DNA from: a virus
Length of the DNA: 42,410 bases
Virus genome (UHGV): UHGV-0161119
Direction: 5' to 3' (one strand)
Shown here: one piece after another, positions 1 through 42,410 of the stretch
How the letters are laid out: each line of letters opens with the position of its first letter
How positions within the stretch are numbered: position 1 is the stretch's first letter
Program-made: the position numbers and the translations under genes
Notes under the pieces: generated by a model
What the model was told of the DNA's origin: nothing
What the model saw: only the letters and a program-made list of their open reading frames with translations
Database searches by the model: none

Positions 1-317
1 TAAAAACAAGTGGTTCTGGTAATGATTTCTATATATCAATAGAAAACTATACTACAGTTCAAAAAACATGTGATAAGTTTGCTTTGCTTCTTTATGGAAA
101 CGGGAATGGAAGTCCAATATGCTCTCTAATTACAGTAAATGTAAGTGGTTCAAACGTTCAAATTGACGGCACATCAAACATTATATCTAGTAACGTGTAT
201 TGCCGTGCAAGCGGTACGTCTATACAAATTTGTAATCTCTCACAATGGGGATATTATACGGTAATTGCTCCACCTAGAGTATATATAGACCAAGGTGGAA
301 TCGTATTTGATAATTAA
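1..317 (+). CDS. Silent receptor-binding C-terminal cassette D (3' part; the frame begins at 42368 and crosses the circular junction)
   Basis: Frame 3 is open from 3 to the stop at 317 (KTSGSGNDFY...FALLLYGNG...IVFDN) and is in frame with TLNSDLTNRSRNIV at 42368-42409. No RBS before the TTG at 84. Confidence 0.8.
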   Translation, partial: KTSGSGNDFYISIENYTTVQKTCDKFALLLYGNGNGSPICSLITVNVSGSNVQIDGTSNIISSNVYCRASGTSIQICNLSQWGYYTVIAPPRVYIDQGGIVFDN

Positions 318-318
318 C

Positions 319-630
319 TTACCTTGCATAAACATCATAAGTAACTGTACCTGTTGGAGACACTACTTGCCAATTTGAAGCAAAGTAAACAACATTTCCA
401 TCGTTGCATGCCATAAAGCTTGCGTGATAAGTGTTGTCATACCAGTAACCATCAGATATACGATTTGTTTCTGTTAAATTTGGAAACATGAACGTGAATT
501 GCGGACTTATTGCATTAGGATAATTAATTGTTGCAACAAGAATTGCCATTTTATATTCACTTGGAATTGTATATTTTGTTGAACTTGGAATATTTGACGC
601 AATCTTTTTATAAGTTAAATCACTAATTAG
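319..630 (-). CDS. Silent receptor-binding C-terminal cassette C (103 aa, begins LISDL)
   Basis: Starts at a degenerate crossover site (614-634); its stop lies tail-to-tail with the cassette D stop; size similar to cassettes A and D. Confidence 0.7.
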   Translation of the reverse strand, partial: LISDLTYKKIASNIPSSTKYTIPSEYKMAILVATINYPNAISPQFTFMFPNLTETNRISDGYWYDNTYHASFMACNDGNVVYFASNWQVVSPTGTVTYDVYAR

Positions 631-634
631 TGTA
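614..634 (-). repeat. Putative shufflon crossover site C (ATACACTAATTAGTGATTTAAC)
   Basis: Matches site D (ATACGTTAAATAGTGATTTAAC) with 3 mismatches, in the same codon phase. Confidence 0.65.
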
Positions 635-900
635 TGCATTAAATCTCGATTGCCACCTTTAGGAATGTTTAACAATGTGATTTCCTGTCCACTCGCTTGA
701 ACATGTACTAACATACAGCTTTCAGATTTTACGGCAGTCAATCCGTTTATTGTCAAAAAAGAATATGTTTTTTCCCATCGAAACGGAACGTCAATGCCAC
801 CAATTATAATAAGCTTATTTTTGACTTTAAAGACATTCAAATAGGTTTTTAAGTTGCCGTTTGGAACTAATGTAAAATCGAAAGAAAAATCATTATTTAG
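631..900 (-). CDS. Silent receptor-binding C-terminal cassette B (90 aa, begins LNNDF; reads through into cassette C)
   Basis: The frame of ORF 319..840 is open up to 900, where it begins CTA AAT AAT GAT TTT right after an in-frame TAA. No start codon with RBS. Confidence 0.7.
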
Positions 901-901
901 T
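884..901 (-). repeat. Putative shufflon crossover site B (ACTAAATAATGATTTTTC)
   Basis: Matches site A core TAAATAGTGATTTTTC with one mismatch; lies about 10 nt after the stop of the expressed gene; same codon phase. Confidence 0.65.
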
Positions 902-909
902 TAATAGAA

Positions 910-1449
910 CTATGAAATATTAATGTATGATGCAGGAACAATCACATTTGCTATTACGACACCGTAAGATGTTGTATCTTTGCATCTTATGTCCACTGTA
1001 TTGTTATGTATAGTTATGTACCCAGTATTTCCACGTGGAGTCCAACTTCCGTCAATGATTTCACAAGGAGCGAAAACTTCATTGTTAAATGTAATACCGT
1101 TGGGCAATGTTAATAAAGTTTGATTTGTATTACCGCCTGTCAAACTTTTGCCATACCATATATAAATCATTGCTAACTGACTATTTTTTTTAATAGCAAA
1201 TCCATCAATGCCATAGGTTTTATACTGTAAACTTGAAAAATCACTATTTAACGTAGAAATATCTGATTGTATTTTACTTATACTATCTTCTATATTTCCA
1301 ATCCCTAATTTAGTTTTTATCAGAGACACGATCGTTGACCACTTAACCTTACTGGCGGTACTCCCACCAGTAAGCATGTAATCATCATCTGATATTGTCT
1401 TTTTCTCTGTTAAATCCGATATATGTACTAAAGGTATATTGATTGCCAT
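910..1449 (-). CDS. Tail fibre/receptor-binding protein: constant N-terminus (~66 aa) plus cassette A (~113 aa)
   Basis: RBS AGGAGTG before ATG; last tail-module gene; coiled segment IEDSISKIQSDISTLNSD followed by a beta-rich head-like domain. Confidence 0.75.
   Translation of the reverse strand: MAINIPLVHISDLTEKKTISDDDYMLTGGSTASKVKWSTIVSLIKTKLGIGNIEDSISKIQSDISTLNSDFSSLQYKTYGIDGFAIKKNSQLAMIYIWYGKSLTGGNTNQTLLTLPNGITFNNEVFAPCEIIDGSWTPRGNTGYITIHNNTVDIRCKDTTSYGVVIANVIVPASYINIS
1238..1261 (-). repeat. Putative shufflon crossover site A (TATTTCTACGTTAAATAGTGATTT)
   Basis: 23/24 identity to site D at 42361-42384, in inverted orientation. Confidence 0.85.
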
Positions 1450-1460
1450 AACATCACTCC

Positions 1461-1658
1461 TTAATTCAACTTGTTTTCTCTGACGTAGCTTCTGATAGCA
1501 TCAATGTGCTTTTTAAGTTCTTTATCTACTACCCAGAAATTTTCTTTTTTATTCTGTGACAATGGTTCTCCTGTGTTATCGTCAATCTCATTGTATGTGT
1601 ATGATACTCTGTCTCCACCGTCAATATTTAATACCATAAAGCTACTCAACTGTTTCAT
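1461..1658 (-). CDS. Small hypothetical tail-module protein
   Basis: RBS AGGAGG; overlaps the end of the upstream tail gene. Confidence 0.7.
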   Translation of the reverse strand: MKQLSSFMVLNIDGGDRVSYTYNEIDDNTGEPLSQNKKENFWVVDKELKKHIDAIRSYVRENKLN

Positions 1659-4600
1659 TTAACATTTCCTCCTGTTCTTTAATCAAATCGTTGATTTCTT
1701 CCATATATTCTTTCTCATAGTCAATCACTTCTTCTTTTTCTGAGTTATCGAATTTTTCAAGTCGTTCAAATTCGTAATCTTTCTGAATTGCTTTGATTTC
1801 CCACGAGAACTTAAGATTTTCAGTACCTTTTACAACAAAGTAACTATCGGTCTTTTCTTCTACCCATATATCGCCTTGCCCCTCTTTCTGCAAGAATACT
1901 TGGTACTCAACACCTGTGTTTACTGTCTCTGAAAATATATCGTTAATGTCTATGTAACATTTTCCTGTATTATCAGTACATCCAGAACCTATATCCCCAA
2001 AATATGGGGTTGCTGTTTCATAACAATACTGCTTTCTTGTATCGTAATTTTCTGTATCTATGATTCTGTTTTTTGTTCCTGCAACAGACAAACTTCCGCC
2101 AATAGTAACTGGCTGATAAAAACTTGATTTTTCTTTTCCAAAATGAAATTTATAATTACTTACCGACCCAAGATAAAGTGATTCATCCGTCATATGCATT
2201 GTTATGTCTGTTTGTACTGTAATTGGTCCACTGCTGTTATTTTTTAATACAATCTCATCTGGGGACAAAATCGCACATGCACCAGTTCCATCCTTGTTTT
2301 CAGATAAATATATACCACCGAACACGTCTGGTGTTATACACACATATGATATTGGCTTTTCTCCCATGCCTGATATATAATGCGTTACGACTATCCCTTT
2401 CGTGTTTATGTCAACAATTTCATTGTCATTTGCATCATAAACGTGCATTTGTCCATTACCGTACGTGTTTGCTTTTCCACCAAGATTTAATGTTCCACCT
2501 CTAGCATAAGTAAAGTTGATATACAACTTACCGTCAGACCCACGATAAATACCTTGCCATGCTCCGTCGTTGGTCAGCAGATTGAATATATCTTCGTGAG
2601 TCAGTGCATCTACGTCAATGGCTACTGGAATTGTCTCAATATCCAACACCTGTGAAAATCCACCTGCGGCATACATCGTACACCTTAACGCTGTAAGATT
2701 TCTTGAGATACCGATACCACTTGAACCGCTTGCAGTAACACCGCTTGAACCACTTGCTAGCACAGAGTACAGTGCATGGGTAATGTCAGTTTCATCTGAG
2801 GATGAAGTATAAACGGTCGTGTATGTATCTCCGTCCGTTGTTTCCTCAATCTTGAATCGACACTTATAAGCTGTACGTGCTGTTGCTGTACCGTCACGGT
2901 AGTAACCAGATAATGTAATGTAGTTCGGCACAATCGTGTTGTCCGCAGACATTTTCACGATACTTGACGATGTTTCCATGAAGTACGTTCTTCCTGCACT
3001 TCCTTGAGGTCCAGTGGCACCCTTTTCCCCTTGCGGTCCAGTAGCACCAGTTTCTCCCTTTGCACCCTGTTCTCCTTTAGCTCCCATCTTACCGATGGAA
3101 TATGTTGTGCTTGTGGTTTTATCAGAGTAAGTATATATGGTCCTCGTCCACAGATATTGATTTTCTGCAACGTTTGGCGGTGTTTTGCTCCATGTTCCTG
3201 TTGGTGCTACCGTTCCGCTGTTGGATGCTTGATAAGTCGTTTCAGAACTTGTGATACTTCTACCGCTTGCACCTGTCTCTCCAGGGATACCGCCTTTTAA
3301 TTTAGCAATGTCAAATCTTTTCGTAACAGAATATGTATTTAGGTAATTTGCTGTAATATCCACCCATCCCACGTCTGTTGTTAATGCTGTCACAGTGTAT
3401 GTGTGAGTTGAATTGTTCCAAGAACCTACGACACCGCTTGACTTCTGCACATTATAAGTACAGTCGTTAGATATGTCGGTATGACCGTACAAAACCTGTG
3501 CTGTCGTGCGGCACTCTGGAAACGTTGTGTACTCTCCCTTATAATCTGTCGTGATTGCTTGATAATCGTTGTCCAGATTGATAATCATTGCACGAGATTT
3601 TCTGGCTTCTTCCAGTGCCTTATTGGCTGTCTCATCGTCCGTGTACTTGTTAAGCTTCTGCCAGTCGGTTTCCACATAGCTTGCACCCTCTCCCCTTGCT
3701 ACCACGCAAGTAAGGATGTCTCCGTTCTGTCCTTGATTCCACATATCTCCTGTGTCATAAGGTGGTGTAGGCTGTGTTAGGAATACACGGCACTTACTGT
3801 TAGCTGTAGACTGTGCAAAAGATGCTGTCTGCAATGCTTTTGTGACGTCCGTATCTTGTACTAACTGCCACTTCCATGTATCGCCGTCTTTGAAAAATCT
3901 GTAAGCATAACCTTTAGATTTCCAGTAAAACAAATCTCCCTCATGCTTCTTTTTATCATCTTCTGTTGTCCAGTCAGAAGCAGGGATGTTTTTTAGAGTT
4001 GGCTCATAGTCGTAGTAGAACGTCTCGATCTGTCCGTCAATCTGGTTCTGTAGATCAGCTACACTTTTTGTAACTGTTTCTGCAAAGTCTGATACTTTAC
4101 CGTCTGCATAGTTCTTAGATTCTTTCACTGCATCACTGATCGCATCGGGTGCTGATTTACCACCGATTGTGACGTTATCCCCAGAAATCTTTACAGTACC
4201 AGTCTCCATGTCTGCATAGAAGATGATATTTCCAGATTTATCTTTGACAGTTAATGCACCAGTGTTGATATAATCTGCATTAATACCCTCTGTATAAAGC
4301 AATCTTGCTACCATTTCCCCAGTGATCGTAAATCCGTAAGGATATGTCTTACCACCATCAATAGAGAATCCGATAACTTCCGATGTCAATTTAATAACAT
4401 TCTTTGATTCTACTAATGTTGGTTTGTCATGCAAGTAATATATAGTCGAACCATCTAACAGTATTTCCTGCGTTGCATACATTCCATTACTGTTTTTTAA
4501 TGCTTCTTGCATCTTATCTAAAGCATTTTGACGGTTATTTCTTTCCTGCTCAACTAACTGTTTACCTTGTATGATCGCTTTTTGATTACTTGATGTGTAG

Positions 4601-5661
4601 TTGCTCTGGTTACGCAATGGAGATTCTGCACTATTCTTTAATGTTGTATATCCGAAGAATACAAAGTTTACATCTGTTAATACTGAATAGAAGCTATTTT
4701 CTCTCCAATCTGTAACTTTAATCTTATCCATAAACTCTGCTATTGGATAAGATATATAGTCCATCGTAAAAGCTCTAAAAGTCACATTTTCAAACTTTTC
4801 ATAAATCCACGAAATAAGTGTCTCTTCATGCCCTGTTACAAGTGGGTTCTCTACAGATAAAACATAACCATCTTTACCAACTTGTACCGTTTTTTCTGTG
4901 TCACTTGTATTGCCATCATCGGTTGTAGTAACCTTTTGTGTCGTTCGAACGCCTGTTACCTGCACATCGTTCGTATCACTTGTCAGATTATTGTAATCAA
5001 CCAATTTATGAATATTCTCATTATCATAATCAAAATCATAGGTCATTATCTGCAATCGCCCTGTGCGGTCAATTCTTGCATTTCCGCAGGCAATCATTGC
5101 AATAAATCCTATAATCTGTCTGTGCGTGTACTCGCTAGATGGCATGGTTGGTATTTGGAAATCGTTATGTAAAAAGTTACTGTCTCCAATCAAGATACCA
5201 CAGGTATCACAACTATCTATCAATACACTCTTTGCTGTCGCAGGAAACGTCAATGCTGTGCTGTATGCCTTATCTGCTTTATACATATCATCGTATCCAA
5301 CAATTGTTACAACACTTCCATAGGTTTCTGGTTGAGTGACAGTAAATGTACCGTATTCAATTTTTTCTGTTGTCTCTGATAATTCAAATGTTAGATACAG
5401 TCTGATTTTTGCTCCGAAGAAGTCATAATTGGATAAGTGATCATCGTCATTCATGATTTCTAACTGTACATTACGGCTGAGTGCAACACCTAAAGGAATG
5501 GTGTTAGCACCTGCCGCATCGACCAGACTATTATTATCTATTGAAAAATCATCTTCTCCTAATGGCAGTACAGTTCCATTCGCAAGCGTTACTTCTGCAT
5601 TGCATTTAAAATCTTGTCGTTCTGTCATTAGCTGTTTAAATTCATCACTTACATTTATCAT
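1642..5661 (-). CDS. Large tail tip/baseplate (Tal-like) protein with collagen-like Gly-X-Y segments and a probable C-terminal chaperone-like domain
   Basis: 1339 aa, after TMP and a Dit-like gene; GAKGEQGAKGETGATGPQGEKGATGPQG repeats; C-terminal YCYETATPYFGDIGSG motif common in Firmicute siphophage tail proteins. Confidence 0.8.
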   Translation of the reverse strand: MINVSDEFKQLMTERQDFKCNAEVTLANGTVLPLGEDDFSIDNNSLVDAAGANTIPLGVALSRNVQLEIMNDDDHLSNYDFFGAKIRLYLTFELSETTEKIEYGTFTVTQPETYGSVVTIVGYDDMYKADKAYSTALTFPATAKSVLIDSCDTCGILIGDSNFLHNDFQIPTMPSSEYTHRQIIGFIAMIACGNARIDRTGRLQIMTYDFDYDNENIHKLVDYNNLTSDTNDVQVTGVRTTQKVTTTDDGNTSDTEKTVQVGKDGYVLSVENPLVTGHEETLISWIYEKFENVTFRAFTMDYISYPIAEFMDKIKVTDWRENSFYSVLTDVNFVFFGYTTLKNSAESPLRNQSNYTSSNQKAIIQGKQLVEQERNNRQNALDKMQEALKNSNGMYATQEILLDGSTIYYLHDKPTLVESKNVIKLTSEVIGFSIDGGKTYPYGFTITGEMVARLLYTEGINADYINTGALTVKDKSGNIIFYADMETGTVKISGDNVTIGGKSAPDAISDAVKESKNYADGKVSDFAETVTKSVADLQNQIDGQIETFYYDYEPTLKNIPASDWTTEDDKKKHEGDLFYWKSKGYAYRFFKDGDTWKWQLVQDTDVTKALQTASFAQSTANSKCRVFLTQPTPPYDTGDMWNQGQNGDILTCVVARGEGASYVETDWQKLNKYTDDETANKALEEARKSRAMIINLDNDYQAITTDYKGEYTTFPECRTTAQVLYGHTDISNDCTYNVQKSSGVVGSWNNSTHTYTVTALTTDVGWVDITANYLNTYSVTKRFDIAKLKGGIPGETGASGRSITSSETTYQASNSGTVAPTGTWSKTPPNVAENQYLWTRTIYTYSDKTTSTTYSIGKMGAKGEQGAKGETGATGPQGEKGATGPQGSAGRTYFMETSSSIVKMSADNTIVPNYITLSGYYRDGTATARTAYKCRFKIEETTDGDTYTTVYTSSSDETDITHALYSVLASGSSGVTASGSSGIGISRNLTALRCTMYAAGGFSQVLDIETIPVAIDVDALTHEDIFNLLTNDGAWQGIYRGSDGKLYINFTYARGGTLNLGGKANTYGNGQMHVYDANDNEIVDINTKGIVVTHYISGMGEKPISYVCITPDVFGGIYLSENKDGTGACAILSPDEIVLKNNSSGPITVQTDITMHMTDESLYLGSVSNYKFHFGKEKSSFYQPVTIGGSLSVAGTKNRIIDTENYDTRKQYCYETATPYFGDIGSGCTDNTGKCYIDINDIFSETVNTGVEYQVFLQKEGQGDIWVEEKTDSYFVVKGTENLKFSWEIKAIQKDYEFERLEKFDNSEKEEVIDYEKEYMEEINDLIKEQEEMLNETVE

Positions 5662-15762: not shown

Positions 15763-15852
15763 CAACGTTTTTTGGAGGAGTATGAAAAAATTACAGCTCT
15801 ACCAATAAAGGGTCAGAAAATAAATGCTATTGATTGCCACTTTTGTGGCTAA

Positions 15853-15926
15853 TGGAAACAACAGGATTCGAACCTGTGACTGTCCACTTATGAGGTGGAT
15901 GCTCTAACCAACTGAACTATGTTTCC
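15853..15926 (-). tRNA. tRNA with CAU anticodon (probably Ile2, lysidine-type; elongator Met is the alternative)
   Basis: Full cloverleaf: GGAAACA/TGTTTCC acceptor, D loop AGTTGGTTA, TCCAC-CTCATAA-GTGGA anticodon arm, ACAGG-TTCGAAT-CCTGT T arm. No encoded CCA. Confidence 0.93.
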
Positions 15927-16073
15927 ACGGACCTCGTGTGAAGTCCTGCCGTATTATACTTTATAAAATCAATAAGAAAAAGGGTTGTAACATGAAAAAT
16001 CTTCGAAACAAATCACATACTAGCAAGTAAAAAATGATTTATTCAACAACAACTATTATTTGTTACAAGTATT

Positions 16074-16394: not shown

Positions 16395-16757
16395 TTATTC
16401 TGCAATTAGCCATTCGTTAGATAAGATATTGTTAAGTGTGTATTCAACCATCTGTGTATCCCTAATATCTAATAAGTCTCCTTTTTCTCCGTTGTCCTTG
16501 TCTCTGCACTGCATCATAATAGTTTCTTTTTCTGTATCCCAATACCAGTACCCACCCCACGATGGAAGTTTTACTTTACGCCCTGCTTTCATTCTTTTAA
16601 ATGCTTCTGCAAACGACATGCCGACATCTTCCACTACAAGTTGCACTCTATAGCCGTCCTTGTGTACGATTCCATCTTTTCCATCTGTAATTGATGCAAT
16701 CAGTTCTCCATCTTTTGTGATATTTAACTCTTTAAAATTTATACCGTCAATTATCAT
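16395..16757 (-). CDS. DUF2829/Tad2-like domain protein with an N-terminal extension
   Basis: MSFAEAFKRMKAGRKVKLPSW...ILSNEWLIAE fits the DUF2829 pattern (MxFxEAxxxxKxGxKVxxxxW...xDWxxxE). Confidence 0.65.
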   Translation of the reverse strand: MIIDGINFKELNITKDGELIASITDGKDGIVHKDGYRVQLVVEDVGMSFAEAFKRMKAGRKVKLPSWGGYWYWDTEKETIMMQCRDKDNGEKGDLLDIRDTQMVEYTLNNILSNEWLIAE

Positions 16758-22329: not shown

Positions 22330-22587
22330 TTAATGCCTTTGTAGTACAAGATTGTACATGCTATCAACATCTCCTGCTTCTTCGTCAACTCCTGCAACGT
22401 AAGAAACATGCCCCTTGCTTCCTCGGATTTCAAAGTATGCTTCATGCAGTCCGATAATTTTCTTTTCTGCTTCTTCTTTTGTAATTTCGCTGTCTGTTTT
22501 CAAAGACACGTCATACCAGAAGTTCATTTCTCTTGCGATTGCTGATAAAACTAATTTTTTATTTTTTAATTCTTTCATTTTCAACAC
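22330..22587 (-). CDS. Hypothetical protein
   Basis: ORF with RBS AAGGAG, downstream of the AP2 gene. Confidence 0.55.
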   Translation of the reverse strand: MLKMKELKNKKLVLSAIAREMNFWYDVSLKTDSEITKEEAEKKIIGLHEAYFEIRGSKGHVSYVAGVDEEAGDVDSMYNLVLQRH

Positions 22588-23248
22588 TCCTTTTATCCTT
22601 TACATACTCTTTATGCTCTTCCAGAAATTTTCCGAACATTTCTTTTTCAGCTTTCTCTCTTGCTTCTCTTGCATCTTCCTTATTGGCGTATCTGCCCAAG
22701 TAATAATTCTTACCCTTAAATTGTATCTGTGCCACCCATTTATTTCTGCTTTTATCCCAAGACACCCCTTTTATTCCAGAAGTGTTCGTCTTTGGTTTCT
22801 TCATCGTCAGACTTCTTATACTCGTTCCGTCAATGCACTGTTTCTTTGTTTCTGCTGCCATTCTTTTGCCTTGCTCTATTTCATGCGGCTTTCTCAGGCA
22901 TCCGCAGCTTTGCACTCTTCCTTTTGTAAGGCTTCCGCTGTCAACAAAATTTACGTTCCCACAATCACAAATGCACTTCCAAATAATAGCACCATTCGAT
23001 GCTTTTCTATTCGTTGGTTCTATCGCTGTTAGCCTGCCAAATTTTTTACCAGTTAGGTCATTCATCTTTATTCTGGTAGTGCATCCACAGTTTTTCCCAT
23101 TTTTTATGTGTTCTGCTCGTGTTATGAATGTTTTCCCGCATGCAGGGCATACAACTTTTGCCATTGTTCTTTTGTTTTCTCTGTAAACTTCTAGTATTTT
23201 GAATCCGTTTACTGTCTTTCCCTGCATTTCCAACCATTTTGTTCTCAT
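22559..23248 (-). CDS. AP2-domain DNA-binding protein with Cys-rich repeats (paralogue 1)
   Basis: CPACG, CICDCG and SCGC motifs; C-terminal NTSGIKGVSWDKSRNKWVAQI...YLGRY. Confidence 0.75.
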   Translation of the reverse strand: MRTKWLEMQGKTVNGFKILEVYRENKRTMAKVVCPACGKTFITRAEHIKNGKNCGCTTRIKMNDLTGKKFGRLTAIEPTNRKASNGAIIWKCICDCGNVNFVDSGSLTKGRVQSCGCLRKPHEIEQGKRMAAETKKQCIDGTSIRSLTMKKPKTNTSGIKGVSWDKSRNKWVAQIQFKGKNYYLGRYANKEDAREAREKAEKEMFGKFLEEHKEYVKDKRSVENERIKK

Positions 23249-23249
23249 A

Positions 23250-23525
23250 TTAGAACTCCTGCACATCTTTAACGACTAAACAGAAAGCTTCTTCTGCTTC
23301 GTCCTCTCCATTATCTGTTGTGATCTCGAAGAAAATCTGTATTTCGCACTCGTTAGAGTCTGTAGCTGTATATACCACATTTCCATCCTGTTTGATGTCT
23401 GCTGTTACTCCATCATCAAATACGCTGTAATATCCAGACTCCATCATGAAGTTGTCAAAATCTGTGAAGCTCATTTCCTCGTTTAATAATTCTTTTTTGA
23501 TTTCTTCTGCGTTTAATTTTTTCAT
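23250..23525 (-). CDS. Acidic hypothetical protein
   Basis: Strong RBS; first gene after a consensus promoter. Confidence 0.7.
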   Translation of the reverse strand: MKKLNAEEIKKELLNEEMSFTDFDNFMMESGYYSVFDDGVTADIKQDGNVVYTATDSNECEIQIFFEITTDNGEDEAEEAFCLVVKDVQEF

Positions 23526-24620: not shown

Positions 24621-24649
24621 TTGTACATTAGTAATATAATATGTATAAT
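24621..24649 (+). promoter_or_regulatory. Promoter of AP2 paralogue 2
   Basis: TTGTAC-N17-TATAAT. Confidence 0.65.
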
Positions 24650-24674
24650 TCATTACAGAAAGAGGTGTTTATTT

Positions 24675-25466
24675 ATGGCTTTAAGAGAATGCGTTGTCTG
24701 TGGAAAGACTTTTGATGGTGCACCAAGTGCAAAATATTGCTCCGAAGAATGTAAAAACGCACCACGATATACAAATGAATTTAATGGAGAAAAGTGGGGA
24801 AAATTAACTATCATAGATGCTTATAGAAAAAAAGGAAGAGTTTATGCCATTTGCAAATGTGAATGTGGAAATACAAAAACTGTAAGATACGATGCTCTAA
24901 CATCTGGTCGAACTCAATCTTGCGGATGTTTTGCCGAAGCTAATTACTATAAACCATTTGACCTCACTGGTAAAATTAACGATTATGGTTGTAAAGCAAT
25001 TAAGCAAATAAGAGTTGGAAATCGGTATAAATGGGAGTGTGAATGTTCTTGCGGAAAGCACTACCTAGTTCCTGCCGGACTGTTTTACAAACAAATGTCT
25101 TGTGGTTGCTCACATCAAAAAAGTGCCAGAGAAAACCTCAAAAAGGCAGCGAAGACATGTGAACAAGGATATATAGAAAATACATCCATTATATCAATCA
25201 AACCTAGAAAAATGCTACGGAATAACACATCTGGAGTCCGTGGTGTTAGTTGGGACAAAAATCGGCGAAAATGGGCTGCTACAATAGTATTTAAAGGCAA
25301 AACATACCATTTAGGAAGATACTATAATATAGAAGATGCAGCCACGGTTAGAAAAGAAGCAGAAAACGCTCTGTTTGGAGATTTTCTTAAATGGTTTCAA
25401 GAAGTGTATCCAGAACGATGGGAAAAATTCAATAAAAAGGCAAAAAAAGAAGAAACAGAGGATTAA
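24675..25466 (+). CDS. AP2-domain DNA-binding protein with Cys-rich repeats (paralogue 2)
   Basis: CVVCG/YCSEEC finger, CKCECG and SCGC repeats, NTSGVRGVSWDKNRRKWAATI...HLGRY; RBS AGAGGTG. Confidence 0.75.
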   Translation: MALRECVVCGKTFDGAPSAKYCSEECKNAPRYTNEFNGEKWGKLTIIDAYRKKGRVYAICKCECGNTKTVRYDALTSGRTQSCGCFAEANYYKPFDLTGKINDYGCKAIKQIRVGNRYKWECECSCGKHYLVPAGLFYKQMSCGCSHQKSARENLKKAAKTCEQGYIENTSIISIKPRKMLRNNTSGVRGVSWDKNRRKWAATIVFKGKTYHLGRYYNIEDAATVRKEAENALFGDFLKWFQEVYPERWEKFNKKAKKEETED

Positions 25467-28951: not shown

Positions 28952-29857
28952 TTACCACATAAGTTGTCCGTTTTCTGCTACCTTAAATTCTCTTTGCCCT
29001 GCAACATTCTTATCTTCTATCCACCACAGGAATACTTCTTCTCCAGATTCCCACTGTGTAGGGAGATTCTTTGCTTTTCTTACTTCTAACATCCTGTCAA
29101 ATGCTCTGATATAATTTAGCTTGAATGTTGGAAAATCGTAAAATTCCTTTAATTTTCCTTTTCTGCCTGCCATCGGACAACCGATGCATCCAACTCTTTT
29201 ATATCCGCATTGGTACAATTTATTAACACATATATTCTCTTGGTCTATGTAGTTCCATATATCTTCCTCTTTCCAATCAACAATGGGATTTACAACCATC
29301 TTGTGCTTCTGCATGCACAATTCAGTGATTCTTCTTTTAGAATTGTTGTCATTGTTGAGCATTACAGAATCATCAAACAATTCCTTTGTTTTAACTGATG
29401 CTCCTATCTTTTCAAATTCTGATCGTGTGTGTTTCCTTTTTGTGCTTTCATCCCATCTAACACCTGTTGCCACGTATCTTCCCATGCCTGCTGTTTCTTT
29501 TAATTCTTTACAACAATATCTTACAAGTCGTGTAGGTGGCATAAGTTTTCTAGGAATGAGATTCCACATCGTGATTCTGGTTCCGTCTGGCTTCCTTGGA
29601 TAGTTAATACTGCACTTTATCCCCCCCTCTTCCAATTTCTTGAAATTGTCACGGACGTGCCACACTGTTTGTGGTGCATCCGCTGTGGTGTGACTGTGCT
29701 GTACTTCAAAAGGAACTCCAGAACGTTTGAATAGCTCTAATAATACATCTGAATCCTTACCACCGCTGTATGTACAGATAAGTGGTTGTTTGTAATACTC
29801 AAGACTCATTTCTGATGCTGTTTTGATTCTTTCTATTGCTTTTTGTTCTAAGTCCAT
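28952..29857 (-). CDS. PAPS reductase-family (PP-loop) protein
   Basis: SGGKDS PP-loop, RYCCKELKE, TGVRWDES and YKRVGCIGCP. Confidence 0.85.
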   Translation of the reverse strand: MDLEQKAIERIKTASEMSLEYYKQPLICTYSGGKDSDVLLELFKRSGVPFEVQHSHTTADAPQTVWHVRDNFKKLEEGGIKCSINYPRKPDGTRITMWNLIPRKLMPPTRLVRYCCKELKETAGMGRYVATGVRWDESTKRKHTRSEFEKIGASVKTKELFDDSVMLNNDNNSKRRITELCMQKHKMVVNPIVDWKEEDIWNYIDQENICVNKLYQCGYKRVGCIGCPMAGRKGKLKEFYDFPTFKLNYIRAFDRMLEVRKAKNLPTQWESGEEVFLWWIEDKNVAGQREFKVAENGQLMW

Positions 29858-32317: not shown

Positions 32318-33100
32318 TTACTCTAATTGCTTATGTAGTAACTGCATTTCTAAATCATCAAAGTCATAGTCTCTCTCGCATTCTAAGACACTTGCAGGAT
32401 TCCGCTGTGGCTTCGGTTCTGGTGGTTTCTCGTAGTTCTCGTCCAGATAATCCACGTAACCAGAATTAAAGAATGTACTTCCGTTCTGTGGTTTTCTCCA
32501 ACTACTGTCCTTAGATAAATCATCCAGATACCTTTTCAAGGCTCTTTCTATTTTTTCTTCTCCTATCTCATACAGAGTCTTTTTCTTTGCATCGGATACC
32601 TGCCCCTTACCACGTTTATTCGGGTACTGTTTCCAGAGCTTTTCAAAACATTCATTGATTGCTTTTTTGTTTGACTTCTCGCAATTTTCTTTTGATTTCT
32701 CGCAATTTTTCTTTGCGTTTTTGTCTGTTTGTTCCATTTTTCGTTCCACTGGTTGTTCCATTTTTGTTCCATTTTCAACCTTGGCAGTTGCTTCTACAAC
32801 TTGTCCACAATCTATGTACTTTTCGTAGTCGAAAACTGTGTATATCGTGTATTTATTTGTGCTTTTTGTGGATAAATACCCAGTGTCCTTTAGTTTCTTT
32901 AGTGCTGTTCGGACCTGCGATTCTGTTAATCCTGTCTCTGCACTGATTCTTGTTATCGAAGATACAAATTGTCCTGCCTTTATCTCTTTTCCGCAGTACC
33001 GCTTGTCCTCTAAATTTGTATGTAGTAGGCAGTGGTAAAACAATCTAAATACATTTGTGTTTTCATACCATTCCCAGTCTGTATTTATATTTATGTTCAT
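32318..33100 (-). CDS. Replication initiator (replisome organiser)
   Basis: N-terminal wHTH (GQFVSSITRISAETGLTESQVRTAL), repeat-rich linker, C-terminal FEKLWKQYP...STFFN. Confidence 0.85.
   Translation of the reverse strand: MNININTDWEWYENTNVFRLFYHCLLHTNLEDKRYCGKEIKAGQFVSSITRISAETGLTESQVRTALKKLKDTGYLSTKSTNKYTIYTVFDYEKYIDCGQVVEATAKVENGTKMEQPVERKMEQTDKNAKKNCEKSKENCEKSNKKAINECFEKLWKQYPNKRGKGQVSDAKKKTLYEIGEEKIERALKRYLDDLSKDSSWRKPQNGSTFFNSGYVDYLDENYEKPPEPKPQRNPASVLECERDYDFDDLEMQLLHKQLE
32671..32771 (-). repeat. Iteron-like repeats inside the initiator gene (candidate origin)
   Basis: Two copies of TTGAYTTCTCGCAATTTT with 21-bp period (32671, 32692) and four TGGAAC units (32730-32771). Confidence 0.65.
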
Positions 33101-39655: not shown

Positions 39656-40909
39656 ATGGCAACAGCTAAATTTAGAAAAGGAAAAGATGGTTACTATTCT
39701 ACCAACGTGTGGGATGGCACATACAAGGATAACGGTAAAAAGAAATACAAACACCTGCGATCTCCAAAAAGCTCTAAGGACCTTGAAAAGAAAGTAAAAG
39801 AATTTGAACGATTAAGGGATGAACGTCGTGGAATCATTGAAACTGACATATTATTTATTGAATATGCTGTACAATGGAGACATTTATACAAAGAATTTAG
39901 TCGTGCTAATAATACAAACAAAATGTATGAAAACATTATCAACGTACATTTTATTCCGATAGCTTATACCAAATTGCAAGACATTGAGCGAAAACATTTC
40001 CAATTGCTATTAAACCATGCTACAGGGCATCCACGAACTCAACAGCAGATTGCTATGACATTCAAGCAAATATTGCGTAGTGCTGTACGTGATCGTATTT
40101 TCTCCGCTCAAACATTCGCAGACGTTTTTGACGATTTTGAGGGAATCAAATACAAAGCAGAAGAACAACGTGCTTTGACACCAGACGAACAGAGAGCCGT
40201 TTTTACGGCAGATTTTAAACCAATGGATAAATTGTATGCCTACATCCTTTACGGCTGTGGATTAAGGCGTGGAGAAGCTCTAGCACTAACAGAAAGTGAC
40301 TTCGACTTAGAAGCCCATACAGTATCTATCACTAAATCTCACGACATATCAGATAATATTCCTTTTGTAAAAACGGTAAAAAATATAACTAACGGAGAAA
40401 GAATACTTCCAATTCCTAACAGTGTATTTGATTATATAGCCGACTATATAGCTATGCTGAGGAAAGACAAAAGAAAATATCTTTTTGTAAACCAAAACCA
40501 CAAACCCATGACAAAATCTGGTTTTAGGAGAATGTTCGACAGAATATTAAAAGCTATGCAGGCAGTCAGCCCAAGTGTTATCGAGGGATTGACAAGCCAT
40601 GTTTTCAGACATAATTATTGTTCTTGCTTATGCTACCAGATTCCAATTATCAGTATTAAGATGGTGGCTAAGTTAGTTGGAGATTCAGAAGAAGTTGTAA
40701 TGAAAGTATACAACCATATCATGATGGAAAAAGAAGATAAAGTGTCAGCTGTAAATAATGCATTAAGTTTCGTAGATTTGGAACAAAAAATGGAACAACC
40801 AGTGGAACAAAAAATGGAACAGCTACAAGATTTATTATCATGGCTTTTTAAGAATGTTTCTGGAACAAAAATGGAACATGGAACACGTATGGAACAAATA
40901 CTTCCTTAA
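39656..40909 (+). CDS. int: Tyrosine integrase
   Basis: GLRRGEALAL, KTVK, HVFRHNY and VYNH catalytic motifs; N-terminal arm-binding-like domain; adjacent to attP. Confidence 0.95.
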   Translation: MATAKFRKGKDGYYSTNVWDGTYKDNGKKKYKHLRSPKSSKDLEKKVKEFERLRDERRGIIETDILFIEYAVQWRHLYKEFSRANNTNKMYENIINVHFIPIAYTKLQDIERKHFQLLLNHATGHPRTQQQIAMTFKQILRSAVRDRIFSAQTFADVFDDFEGIKYKAEEQRALTPDEQRAVFTADFKPMDKLYAYILYGCGLRRGEALALTESDFDLEAHTVSITKSHDISDNIPFVKTVKNITNGERILPIPNSVFDYIADYIAMLRKDKRKYLFVNQNHKPMTKSGFRRMFDRILKAMQAVSPSVIEGLTSHVFRHNYCSCLCYQIPIISIKMVAKLVGDSEEVVMKVYNHIMMEKEDKVSAVNNALSFVDLEQKMEQPVEQKMEQLQDLLSWLFKNVSGTKMEHGTRMEQILP

Positions 40910-40931
40910 ACTTTTAAATACTTTCGGTTAC

Positions 40932-40969
40932 TTTAAGGGTATGATTTTTAGACAGGTCATACCCTTAAA
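40932..40969. terminator. Perfect 13-bp inverted repeat after int
   Basis: TTTAAGGGTATGA-N12-TCATACCCTTAAA. Confidence 0.55.
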
Positions 40970-40984
40970 AACTGTATAAATACA

Positions 40985-41024
40985 AGAAAAGCACGGTATT
41001 TAGCCATTTGGCAACCGTGCTTCT
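40985..41024 (-). terminator. Terminator downstream of the tRNA half
   Basis: AAGCACGGT...ACCGTGCTT followed by TTCTT on the minus strand. Confidence 0.6.
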
Positions 41025-41029
41025 TAAAG

Positions 41030-41076
41030 TGAGCGTGCGGGGATTCGAACCCCGGACAACTTGATTAAAAGTCAAG
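41030..41076 (-). other. attP core: 3' half of tRNA-Lys(UUU)
   Basis: CTTGA-CTTTTAA-TCAAG anticodon arm, CGGGG-TTCGAAT-CCCCG T arm and 3' acceptor strand; the 5' half is absent; lies between int and the lysin. Confidence 0.9.
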
Positions 41077-41164
41077 GAATCAAATCTATGTTAAACCGCA
41101 TAAACTCTATTGTTCTCAATTTTGGTTGGAACGAAAATGGAACATTCTCGCTTCAACGTTGTTT

Positions 41165-41926: not shown

Positions 41927-42247
41927 TTACACTTCCTCTTTGTGGGTAATGTTGATAGGTTCTTCTGTTAAGTCCGCAGGTCCTTGATAGTCTGGGTCTA
42001 CTGCCTGTCCTAATTCTTCATAAGACATTGCATTAACACTATCCCCGATTCCCTTTGTTGTTGGGTCCACCAATACCCCGACAGCCACTAAGATATTAAG
42101 GATGATACCTACAAGCTGTGATACTACATCCTGTGCGATTGGTGCTGTGATACCTAAGATTCCTAGAATCTGATAGATAAATGCAATTAAGGCAGAAGCC
42201 AATGCTACTAATGTTGCTTTATTTTTGAAACGTAATTTAAGATTCAT
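41927..42247 (-). CDS. Holin (phiLC3-like)
   Basis: MNLKLRFKNK, two TM helices, GVLVDPTTKGIGDS; RBS AAGGAG before ATG 42247. Confidence 0.88.
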   Translation of the reverse strand: MNLKLRFKNKATLVALASALIAFIYQILGILGITAPIAQDVVSQLVGIILNILVAVGVLVDPTTKGIGDSVNAMSYEELGQAVDPDYQGPADLTEEPINITHKEEV

Positions 42248-42332
42248 AGTTTCTCCTTTCATTTATTAAGTGTTTGTGTTAATATGTGAATGGAGATTTT
42301 CTTCTTTCTTAATCTCCATTTGTAATTTATTT

Positions 42333-42365
42333 ACACCTTGCTTCATGCAGGGTGTTTTTTTATTT
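42333..42365 (+). terminator. Plus-strand intrinsic terminator immediately before site D
   Basis: ACACCTTGC-TTCAT-GCAGGGTGT followed by a T-run. Confidence 0.7.
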
Positions 42366-42387
42366 ATACGTTAAATAGTGATTTAAC
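42361..42387 (+). repeat. Putative shufflon crossover site D
   Basis: TATTTATACGTTAAATAGTGATTT is an inverted 23/24 match to site A; contains the dyad GTTAAAT-AGTG-ATTTAAC. Confidence 0.85.
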
Positions 42388-42410
42388 AAATAGATCAAGG
42401 AACATTGTGC
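42368..42410 (+). CDS. 5' part of silent cassette D (continues at base 1)
   Basis: ACG TTA AAT AGT GAT TTA... = TLNSDLTNRSRNIV, then C|TA across the junction. Confidence 0.8.

Follow-up and report, generated by a model that had tools for sequence, protein, structure and literature searches.

The locus described here raises the question of how a phage can maintain a switchable set of tail tips while encoding no enzyme dedicated to switching them. Throughout, the window refers to the whole stretch of DNA analyzed, the 42,410-nt viral genome UHGV-0161119. Judged from its sequence, the 42.4-kb window phage is a temperate siphophage, with genes for terminase, portal, capsid, tape measure, tail protein, holin, amidase and repressor, and a single integrase. 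Anaerostipes hadrus is the likely host, because members of the cluster to which the shufflon protein belongs carry A. hadrus names and a form in which the constant part is joined to cassette d comes from "Lachnospiraceae bacterium OM02-26". A preliminary description of the same DNA proposed that a small gene near the start of the window is the expressed member of a four-cassette tail-fibre shufflon, in which inversion exchanges the C-terminus of the protein.

Organization of the module

The reading frame of the expressed gene was found as proposed at 1449-910 and encodes 179 aa. It is placed between the large tail protein and the holin, at the boundary of the tail and lysis genes. Sites A, B, C and D do share one codon phase, all reading L-[NI]-[SN]-D, and sites A and D are identical at 23 of 24 positions. 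The junction across the circular ends, 42410 to 1, is also real: the d frame is open for 118 aa, and relatives L004 and L007 carry a contiguous d at 100%. Two details of the preliminary description required amendment. The downstream cassettes were taken to be separate frames lacking starts, which does not strictly hold for c, as an in-frame ATG (639-637) precedes site C by three codons. Cassette b, described as a frame of its own, does span 90 aa, but no stop codon closes it, and the reading frame continues across site C into c, so that 193 aa are open. The features are listed in Table 1.

Table 1. Coordinates of the shufflon module and associated features in the window
Feature	Position	Strand	Remarks
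Cassette d, main part	1..317	+	118 aa counted from site D, spanning the circular join
Cassette c	319..616	-	103 aa from the site; joined to the constant part in L020, L048 and L062
Site C, active	617..630	-	CTAAT-TAGTGA-TTT; C-left joined to d in 5/25
Cassette b	631..886	-	No stop, reads into site C; expression never seen
Site B	887..900	-	CTAAA-TAATGA-TTT; core mismatch
Cassette a, expressed in window	910..1237	-	Predicted lactococcal-type receptor-binding protein head
Site A, expression site	1238..1251	-	TTAAA-TAGTGA-TTT; inferred 6-bp exchange core 1246-1241
Constant N-terminal part	1252..1449	-	66 codons; attachment segment and predicted trimeric coiled coil, which ends at Leu67 of the site
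Upstream large tail protein	1642..5661	-	Context for shufflon gene
Integrase	39656..40909	+	Only detectable tyrosine recombinase of the phage
Probable attP core	41029..41076	+	Common to all group integrases
Holin	41927..42262	-	Directly after the module; no recombinase gene between
Terminator-like hairpin and T-run	42333..42365	+	Just upstream of site D; detected on L002, then located in the window
Site D, inverted	42371..42384	+	GTTAAA-TAGTGA-TTTAAC, perfect 6-6-6 inverted repeat
Cassette d, first 26 nt	42385..42410	+	Continues at position 1

The short repeated crossover sites, at least one of which is inverted, are rare outside the module: five matches of at least 12/14 to the site motif occur in the window, and four of them lie within the 1600 nt of the module. 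None of 1000 Markov simulations reached three such matches, with the qualification that the motif was derived from A and D, so that only B and C count as independent matches. By BLASTP, cassettes a, b, c and d are mutually unrelated. Each has relatives elsewhere: cassette a is 64% identical to a cassette of invertase-bearing A. hadrus phages, and the matches of b (67%), c (about 30%) and d (50%) are to myophage cassettes. In other phages, homologous cassettes form the ends of proteins annotated as tail fibres. The hairpin preceding site D could conceivably silence the inverted cassette, although 0.6 such structures are expected by chance.

Several further features of the window were recorded. 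A tRNA-Met is located at 15852-15927 (-), followed by a weak Tad2-like match at 16395-16757 (-) that is under the cut-off (E 0.002). Two AP2-domain genes are found at 22559-23266 (-) and 24621-25466 (+), one of which is an HNH endonuclease, and a PAPS-reductase-domain gene is located at 28952-29857 (-). The sequence TGGAAC[AG] is repeated four times within the replication-initiator gene (32730-32765, -) and ten times around the 3' end of the integrase and attP (40779-41145, +), and the two sets include a 36-nt inverted match at 97%. These repeats may be iterons of the origin that attP uses as well, or arm sites of the integrase that recur at the origin; such sharing, if true, could tie excision to replication.

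Predicted structure of the tip protein

Sequence comparison did not identify the shufflon gene. No match was obtained in INPHARED, GTDB contigs, Pfam, PHROGs, NCBIfam or PDB sequences, and in the ESM Atlas the tip led to viral clusters without names and the N-terminus to leads scoring below 0.9. A structural model of the constant part joined to a was built from a 19-row alignment (pLDDT 80.9; a single-sequence fold gave pLDDT 45 and was not used). In this model, a helix that finishes close to the site's Leu67 is followed by a beta-barrel. The best structural matches of tip a are the receptor-binding protein (RBP) heads of lactococcal phages bIL170, TP901-1 and p2, with Z 10.4 and rmsd 2.6 over 97 aligned residues for bIL170. 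Prediction as a homotrimer scored 0.88 compared to 0.00 for the best control, with contact agreement between runs of at least 91% and pLDDT of at least 90; the score mark, which was calibrated on dimers, is passed by 20 of 30 solved pairs and by 1 of 23 single chains, and resemblance to solved RBP trimers may account for the pass. We predict that tip a forms a trimeric receptor-binding head of the lactococcal type. The preliminary description called for structure predictions of every combination of constant part and cassette; the check covered tip a, for which the model gives such a head. From the fold, and by analogy to other phages, exchange of the tip would alter host range.

Cassette arrangements among relatives

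The relative set consisted of 72 returned loci plus the window, giving 73 sequences, of which the constant-side junction could be classified in 66. Of the remaining seven, L029 has no constant part and L066-L071 have other flanks. Among relatives the constant part occurs joined to a, c, d, e or f. The 66 classified junctions comprise 24 to a (11 of these from a fixed, non-shufflon lineage), 26 to d, 3 to c and 9 to a further cassette, e, with 4 sequences ending at the site and none joined to b. The A×D inversion that was predicted to place d in expression is therefore well represented. Cassette c also reaches expression as anticipated, via C×D plus A×D or by a direct A×C step. In contrast, the proposed B×D route found no counterpart, and b keeps its own left flank wherever this could be scored. 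Relatives thus show several cassette orders and not a single arrangement.

When inversion of the window module is replayed in silico, every one of the 18 complete four-cassette relatives (98.6-99.9% identical) is recovered, at 1-21 mismatches over 1500 nt. Three are arranged as in the window, 12 correspond to A×D, two to C×D and one to C×D plus A×D, with none corresponding to B×D. Several orientations were found within four different cassette sets, the other sets occurring in more than one orientation being L006/8/9 versus L033-35, L045/48/49, and L059/64 versus L062. A search with a b probe recovered 15 metagenome contigs, 12 of which have the constant part joined to d. Among eight runs examined, the A×D form was detected in X2, X3, X15, X16 and X18, and the form of the window in X1. 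In X6, a mixed wastewater sample, junctions of d with both the constant part and C-left are present; as these exclude each other on one molecule, mutually exclusive states coexist in this sample. Run X17 contains the constant part joined to d at depth 15.9, plus a 48-nt piece joining it to c at depth 5.3 that has 14 nt on one side, which is under the bridging threshold. One IMG/VR contig has the constant part joined to a at one end (L042) and to d at the other (L032), and L029 shows site C joined to both c and d. This evidence is at the level of contigs and assemblies, not of reads, and it leaves very little doubt that the module is a site-specific inversion system. The shufflon rearranges, and sites A, C and D recombine.

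Other changes are seen around the module. L006, L008, L009 and L032-L035 have a 208-nt deletion that takes out site C and joins b to c in a different frame; what remains is a two-state a/d switch. A sister lineage (L010-L019, L039 and L066-L071) has a fixed single-tip gene, then a separate gene of 440-800 aa with a similar N-terminus and variable bodies, including a GDSL esterase in L011. The fixed tips of this lineage (a, or "LKDAFVTQ") double as cassettes of invertase-bearing phages. In one relative, a transposase-like gene is inserted directly after the tip gene (L057:5757-6932).

Mapping of the crossover and the inert site B

In recombinants, the left flank of C retains its T at position +5, and A and D diverge after +14, which places the exchange within TAGTGATTT. 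The crossover interval in the window group is +6 to +14, and conservation stops at +11 in the myophage sites. Given this limit and the symmetry of site D and of the D-left/c-right site of L045, a 13-6-13 palindrome, we infer that the exchange core is the 6-bp TAGTGA. A dif-like register, with its center upstream of the TACGTTAAAT stretch, is ruled out by the mapping.

Site B behaves differently. The window allele, with its TAATGA core, was recombined in 0 of 32 cases. Cassette b is on its own left flank in 43 of 43, and in 11 of those the core is intact, indicating that the core mismatch is not a sufficient explanation; the idea that B is locked by its core alone was rejected. The recombined fraction is 0/21 for B compared to 5/25 for C (p=0.054). 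In L038 and L063, two relatives in which the core is intact and no b is visible, B-left adjoins c or d. Based on these sequences, site B is effectively dead, leaving a, c and d as the working tips. Of the four-cassette variant set put forward originally, the expression of a, c and d was borne out; b, which has no stop codon and has never moved, drops out, and so there are three expressed tips, not four.

Absence of an invertase from the phage

The stretch from the constant part to the holin contains no recombinase-like gene. In the window, the integrase was the only hit of Pfam scans over 71 ORFs and of a six-frame HMM search, and no serine recombinase or resolvase-family match was found among the 71 ORFs scanned. 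The six-frame search used a broad invertase HMM with a working control, as an earlier narrow HMM had missed even the integrase. When an invertase alignment was compared to 49 records, none of the 39 belonging to this phage group matched (23 of them at least 90% complete), whereas 8 of 10 records outside the group did. As far as these sequence searches extend, the whole phage group encodes no dedicated invertase.

Candidate sources of the recombinase

With no invertase encoded by the phage, the enzyme is likely supplied in trans, and we lean toward the view that the A, C and D flips are made by a Xer-like tyrosine recombinase of another prophage in the same A. hadrus cell. Inversions between these sites swap the C-terminal tip of the small tail protein, the predicted trimeric receptor-binding protein, and a co-resident A. 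hadrus prophage would supply the enzyme. The donor enzyme would come from a family of ~331 aa that is found inside same-frame "LNSD" shufflons of other Lachnospiraceae phages. This family emerged from a search with the sites, which led to unrelated phages with tail-fibre shufflons that have the same or similar cores and an embedded tyrosine recombinase of 331-340 aa. It is nearest to the XerA/C/D models, but below their cut-offs, and is present in 78 of 401 sampled Lachnospiraceae genomes. In Hungatella-type prophages the family gene is embedded among TTAAA-TAGTGA-TTT sites. In 37 A. hadrus-type viral contigs, a family member is located inside shufflons whose cassettes include homologues of a (64%), b (67%), c (30%) and d (50%); here the sites read CRCAR-YTAAA-TTCTGA, with the TTCTGA core in 121 of 122, and keep the Leu-Asn-Ser-Asp/Glu frame with the other Ser codon. 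However, their conserved left arm is not shared by the window sites, which have TACG/TACA. Contigs L381 and L456, which carry the invertase, and L008, which belongs to this phage group, share IMG id 2811995148, which we take to be one genome based on naming practice. Overall, one of eight non-pooled genome or sample ids with a shufflon relative recurs among the invertase contigs, IMG/VR being incomplete. Given this overlap and the differing arm, the case for the donor family is stronger than that for the donor member. Cores are uniform within 19 of 19 invertase loci, which is explainable by common descent and hence gives no independent support.

The search also brought up related arrangements. 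Hungatella hathewayi G053 has two invertase-bearing tail loci with TAGTGA cores. Its third tail-fibre gene (L615:2559-3241) has a head-to-head TAGTGA pair, a putative switch, with no recombinase in 7 kb and the nearest profile match more than 700 kb away. Site pairs in other phages were considered as further orphans and rejected, as five of seven records encode a distant family member elsewhere. In L445-L450 (G041-G047), which have head-to-head LNSD pairs, the distant family member is far from the tail genes and mostly just upstream of the terminase. Members of the recombinase family are also found within type I restriction-modification loci (L604 and L608-L613), adjoining hsdS where checked, which suggests traffic between restriction-modification and phage-tail switches. 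The gene flanking L029 was tried twice as a route to the host chromosome, and its best match peaked at 49% identity.

The main rival to supply in trans is that the phage's own integrase doubles as the invertase, with a part both in integration at a tRNA gene and in inversion of the cassettes. The window phage has no other tyrosine recombinase; the integrase lies ~1.5 kb from site D, and is present with the same attP in every relative that extends far enough. The attP contains TTAAAAGTCA, which is loosely like TTAAATAGTGA. The diversity of the group's integrases (65-98% aa identity) was tried as an argument against this idea and fails, since all keep one attP core. The reverse complement of that core is likely the 3' half of a tRNA-Lys, although ARAGORN made no such call, and attP appears to read as a 7-bp anticodon loop flanked by CTTGA/TCAAG, unlike a 6-bp core with TTAAA/TTT arms. 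Lambda-type integrases use a 7-bp overlap. Furthermore, the TGGAAC repeats, which are possible integrase arm sites, cluster at attP and not at the shufflon, the non-shufflon lineage carries the same integrases, and the same 14-mer is used by unrelated phages with an embedded Xer-like gene. Taken together, we judge a second role for the integrase unlikely.

Plausible, but slightly less probable, is that a host chromosomal recombinase flips the sites, be it an hsdS-locus family member, a RecV-like master recombinase or XerCD. Frequent inversion across many samples fits such an enzyme, the palindrome in L045 is as expected for a homodimer, and family members adjoin hsdS genes in Lachnospiraceae chromosomes (Pfam-verified in 3 of 11 loci fetched). 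RecV and Mpi act on distant sites, according to the accessible part of PMC5903667. The exclusion of a dif-like register by the crossover mapping argues against XerCD-type action at such a center. We regard it as very improbable that the switch is frozen, or flips by microhomology through ERF annealing or template switching, with the arrangements being relics or assembly artefacts. The phage does carry an ERF gene, cassettes have been lost in L059, L062, L063 and L064, and all evidence is assembled sequence. However, the stretch shared by recombining sequences is just 12-18 nt long, and the reciprocal products are formed exactly. Modules that are otherwise almost identical are found in four states, junctions that exclude one another turn up together in single data sets, and five contigs terminate exactly at a site. 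An enzyme supplied by another prophage remains the favored source.

Comparison to known inversion systems

The preliminary description pointed to Mu Gin, P1 Cin and p15B Min, which likewise swap tail tips by inversion at a site inside the reading frame. Gin, Cin and Min are serine invertases encoded in cis, whereas none was found in the window phage, and the tyrosine-type Rin system is a closer analogue. Rin shufflons are described in Bifidobacterium prophages (Mavrich et al. 2018, PMC6109161) and in Eggerthella lenta (PMC8778435), in the parts of these papers available, and a XerD-like tyrosine recombinase is inferred there as driver, with TP901-1-like heads (PMC6109161). Both systems have a constant RBP N-terminus followed by several dissimilar C-terminal cassettes with RBP-like heads (here predicted for cassette a only), short repeated crossover sites, and multiple inversion states with breakpoints inside the sites (here at contig level). 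They differ in that Rin has an adjacent arm-less tyrosine invertase, and here there is no invertase gene beside the cassettes or elsewhere in the phage; in the site, TTAAA-TAGTGA-TTT compared to TTCCCTAACCC; and in the Firmicute host. Judged by sequence features, the system works like Rin but lacks the adjacent invertase by which Rin is defined.

Supply in trans is, as an idea, already proposed in the available text of PMC6109161 for a recombinase-less inverted locus of the tRNA-Met bifidophages 689b-1 and Bb423phi2. That locus is also a phage inversion without a flanking recombinase, but it is two-state and known from two genomes, with no gene function or donor named, whereas the present case has several cassettes, dozens of genomes and mixed states, together with a predicted RBP fold and a candidate donor family. 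The R64 shufflon is alike in being a tyrosine-type multi-cassette inversion with one conserved arm and a core, and the A. hadrus myophage sites are similarly asymmetric. R64 has sfx sites with a 7-bp core and one conserved 12-bp arm, as well as an adjacent rci, whose product has an extra C-terminal domain (PMC11852207, as far as available). Here there is no adjacent rci gene, the core is probably 6 bp, symmetry is nearly complete in sites C and D, and some relatives show deletions. A BV01-like Phocaeicola phage is also a gut temperate phage with an active multi-cassette tail-fibre shufflon (PMC13596623, accessible portion), but its motif and host phylum are different and the module is flanked by its own recombinase. 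Our literature search, with most subscription papers outside its scope, returned no description of this system and no named donor for an orphan phage shufflon; it included the available parts of PMC9881135, PMC5903667, PMC9998913 and 10.1101/2024.10.15.618418. One supplementary file of PMC9881135 has no mention of Anaerostipes or Hungatella, and the large tables of that paper may list such loci.

Implications

Phage tail shufflons are normally self-contained, whereas here a whole group of phages keeps a rearranged multi-tip switch without an invertase of its own, in the setting of a common butyrate-producing gut bacterium. A widespread recombinase family can now be named, with defined sites and naturally different cores. 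If supply in trans is true, searches that require a neighboring recombinase would miss such systems, and shufflons without an invertase should not be presumed frozen. A broader reading, which we offer tentatively, is that Lachnospiraceae phages share the Xer-like invertase family as a common good, with orphan shufflons freeloading on the enzyme of a co-resident prophage and taking their RBP tips from a joint pool. Every site must encode Leu-Asn-Ser-Asp, and the choice of Ser codon, AGT or TCT, would create orthogonal cores, TAGTGA and TTCTGA, such that one enzyme could flip the cassettes of both phages without recombining their genomes. If other prophages do supply the enzyme, receptor switching would be a phage-phage interaction and, on the common-good reading, the ability of a phage to switch host range would depend on which other prophages its host carries.
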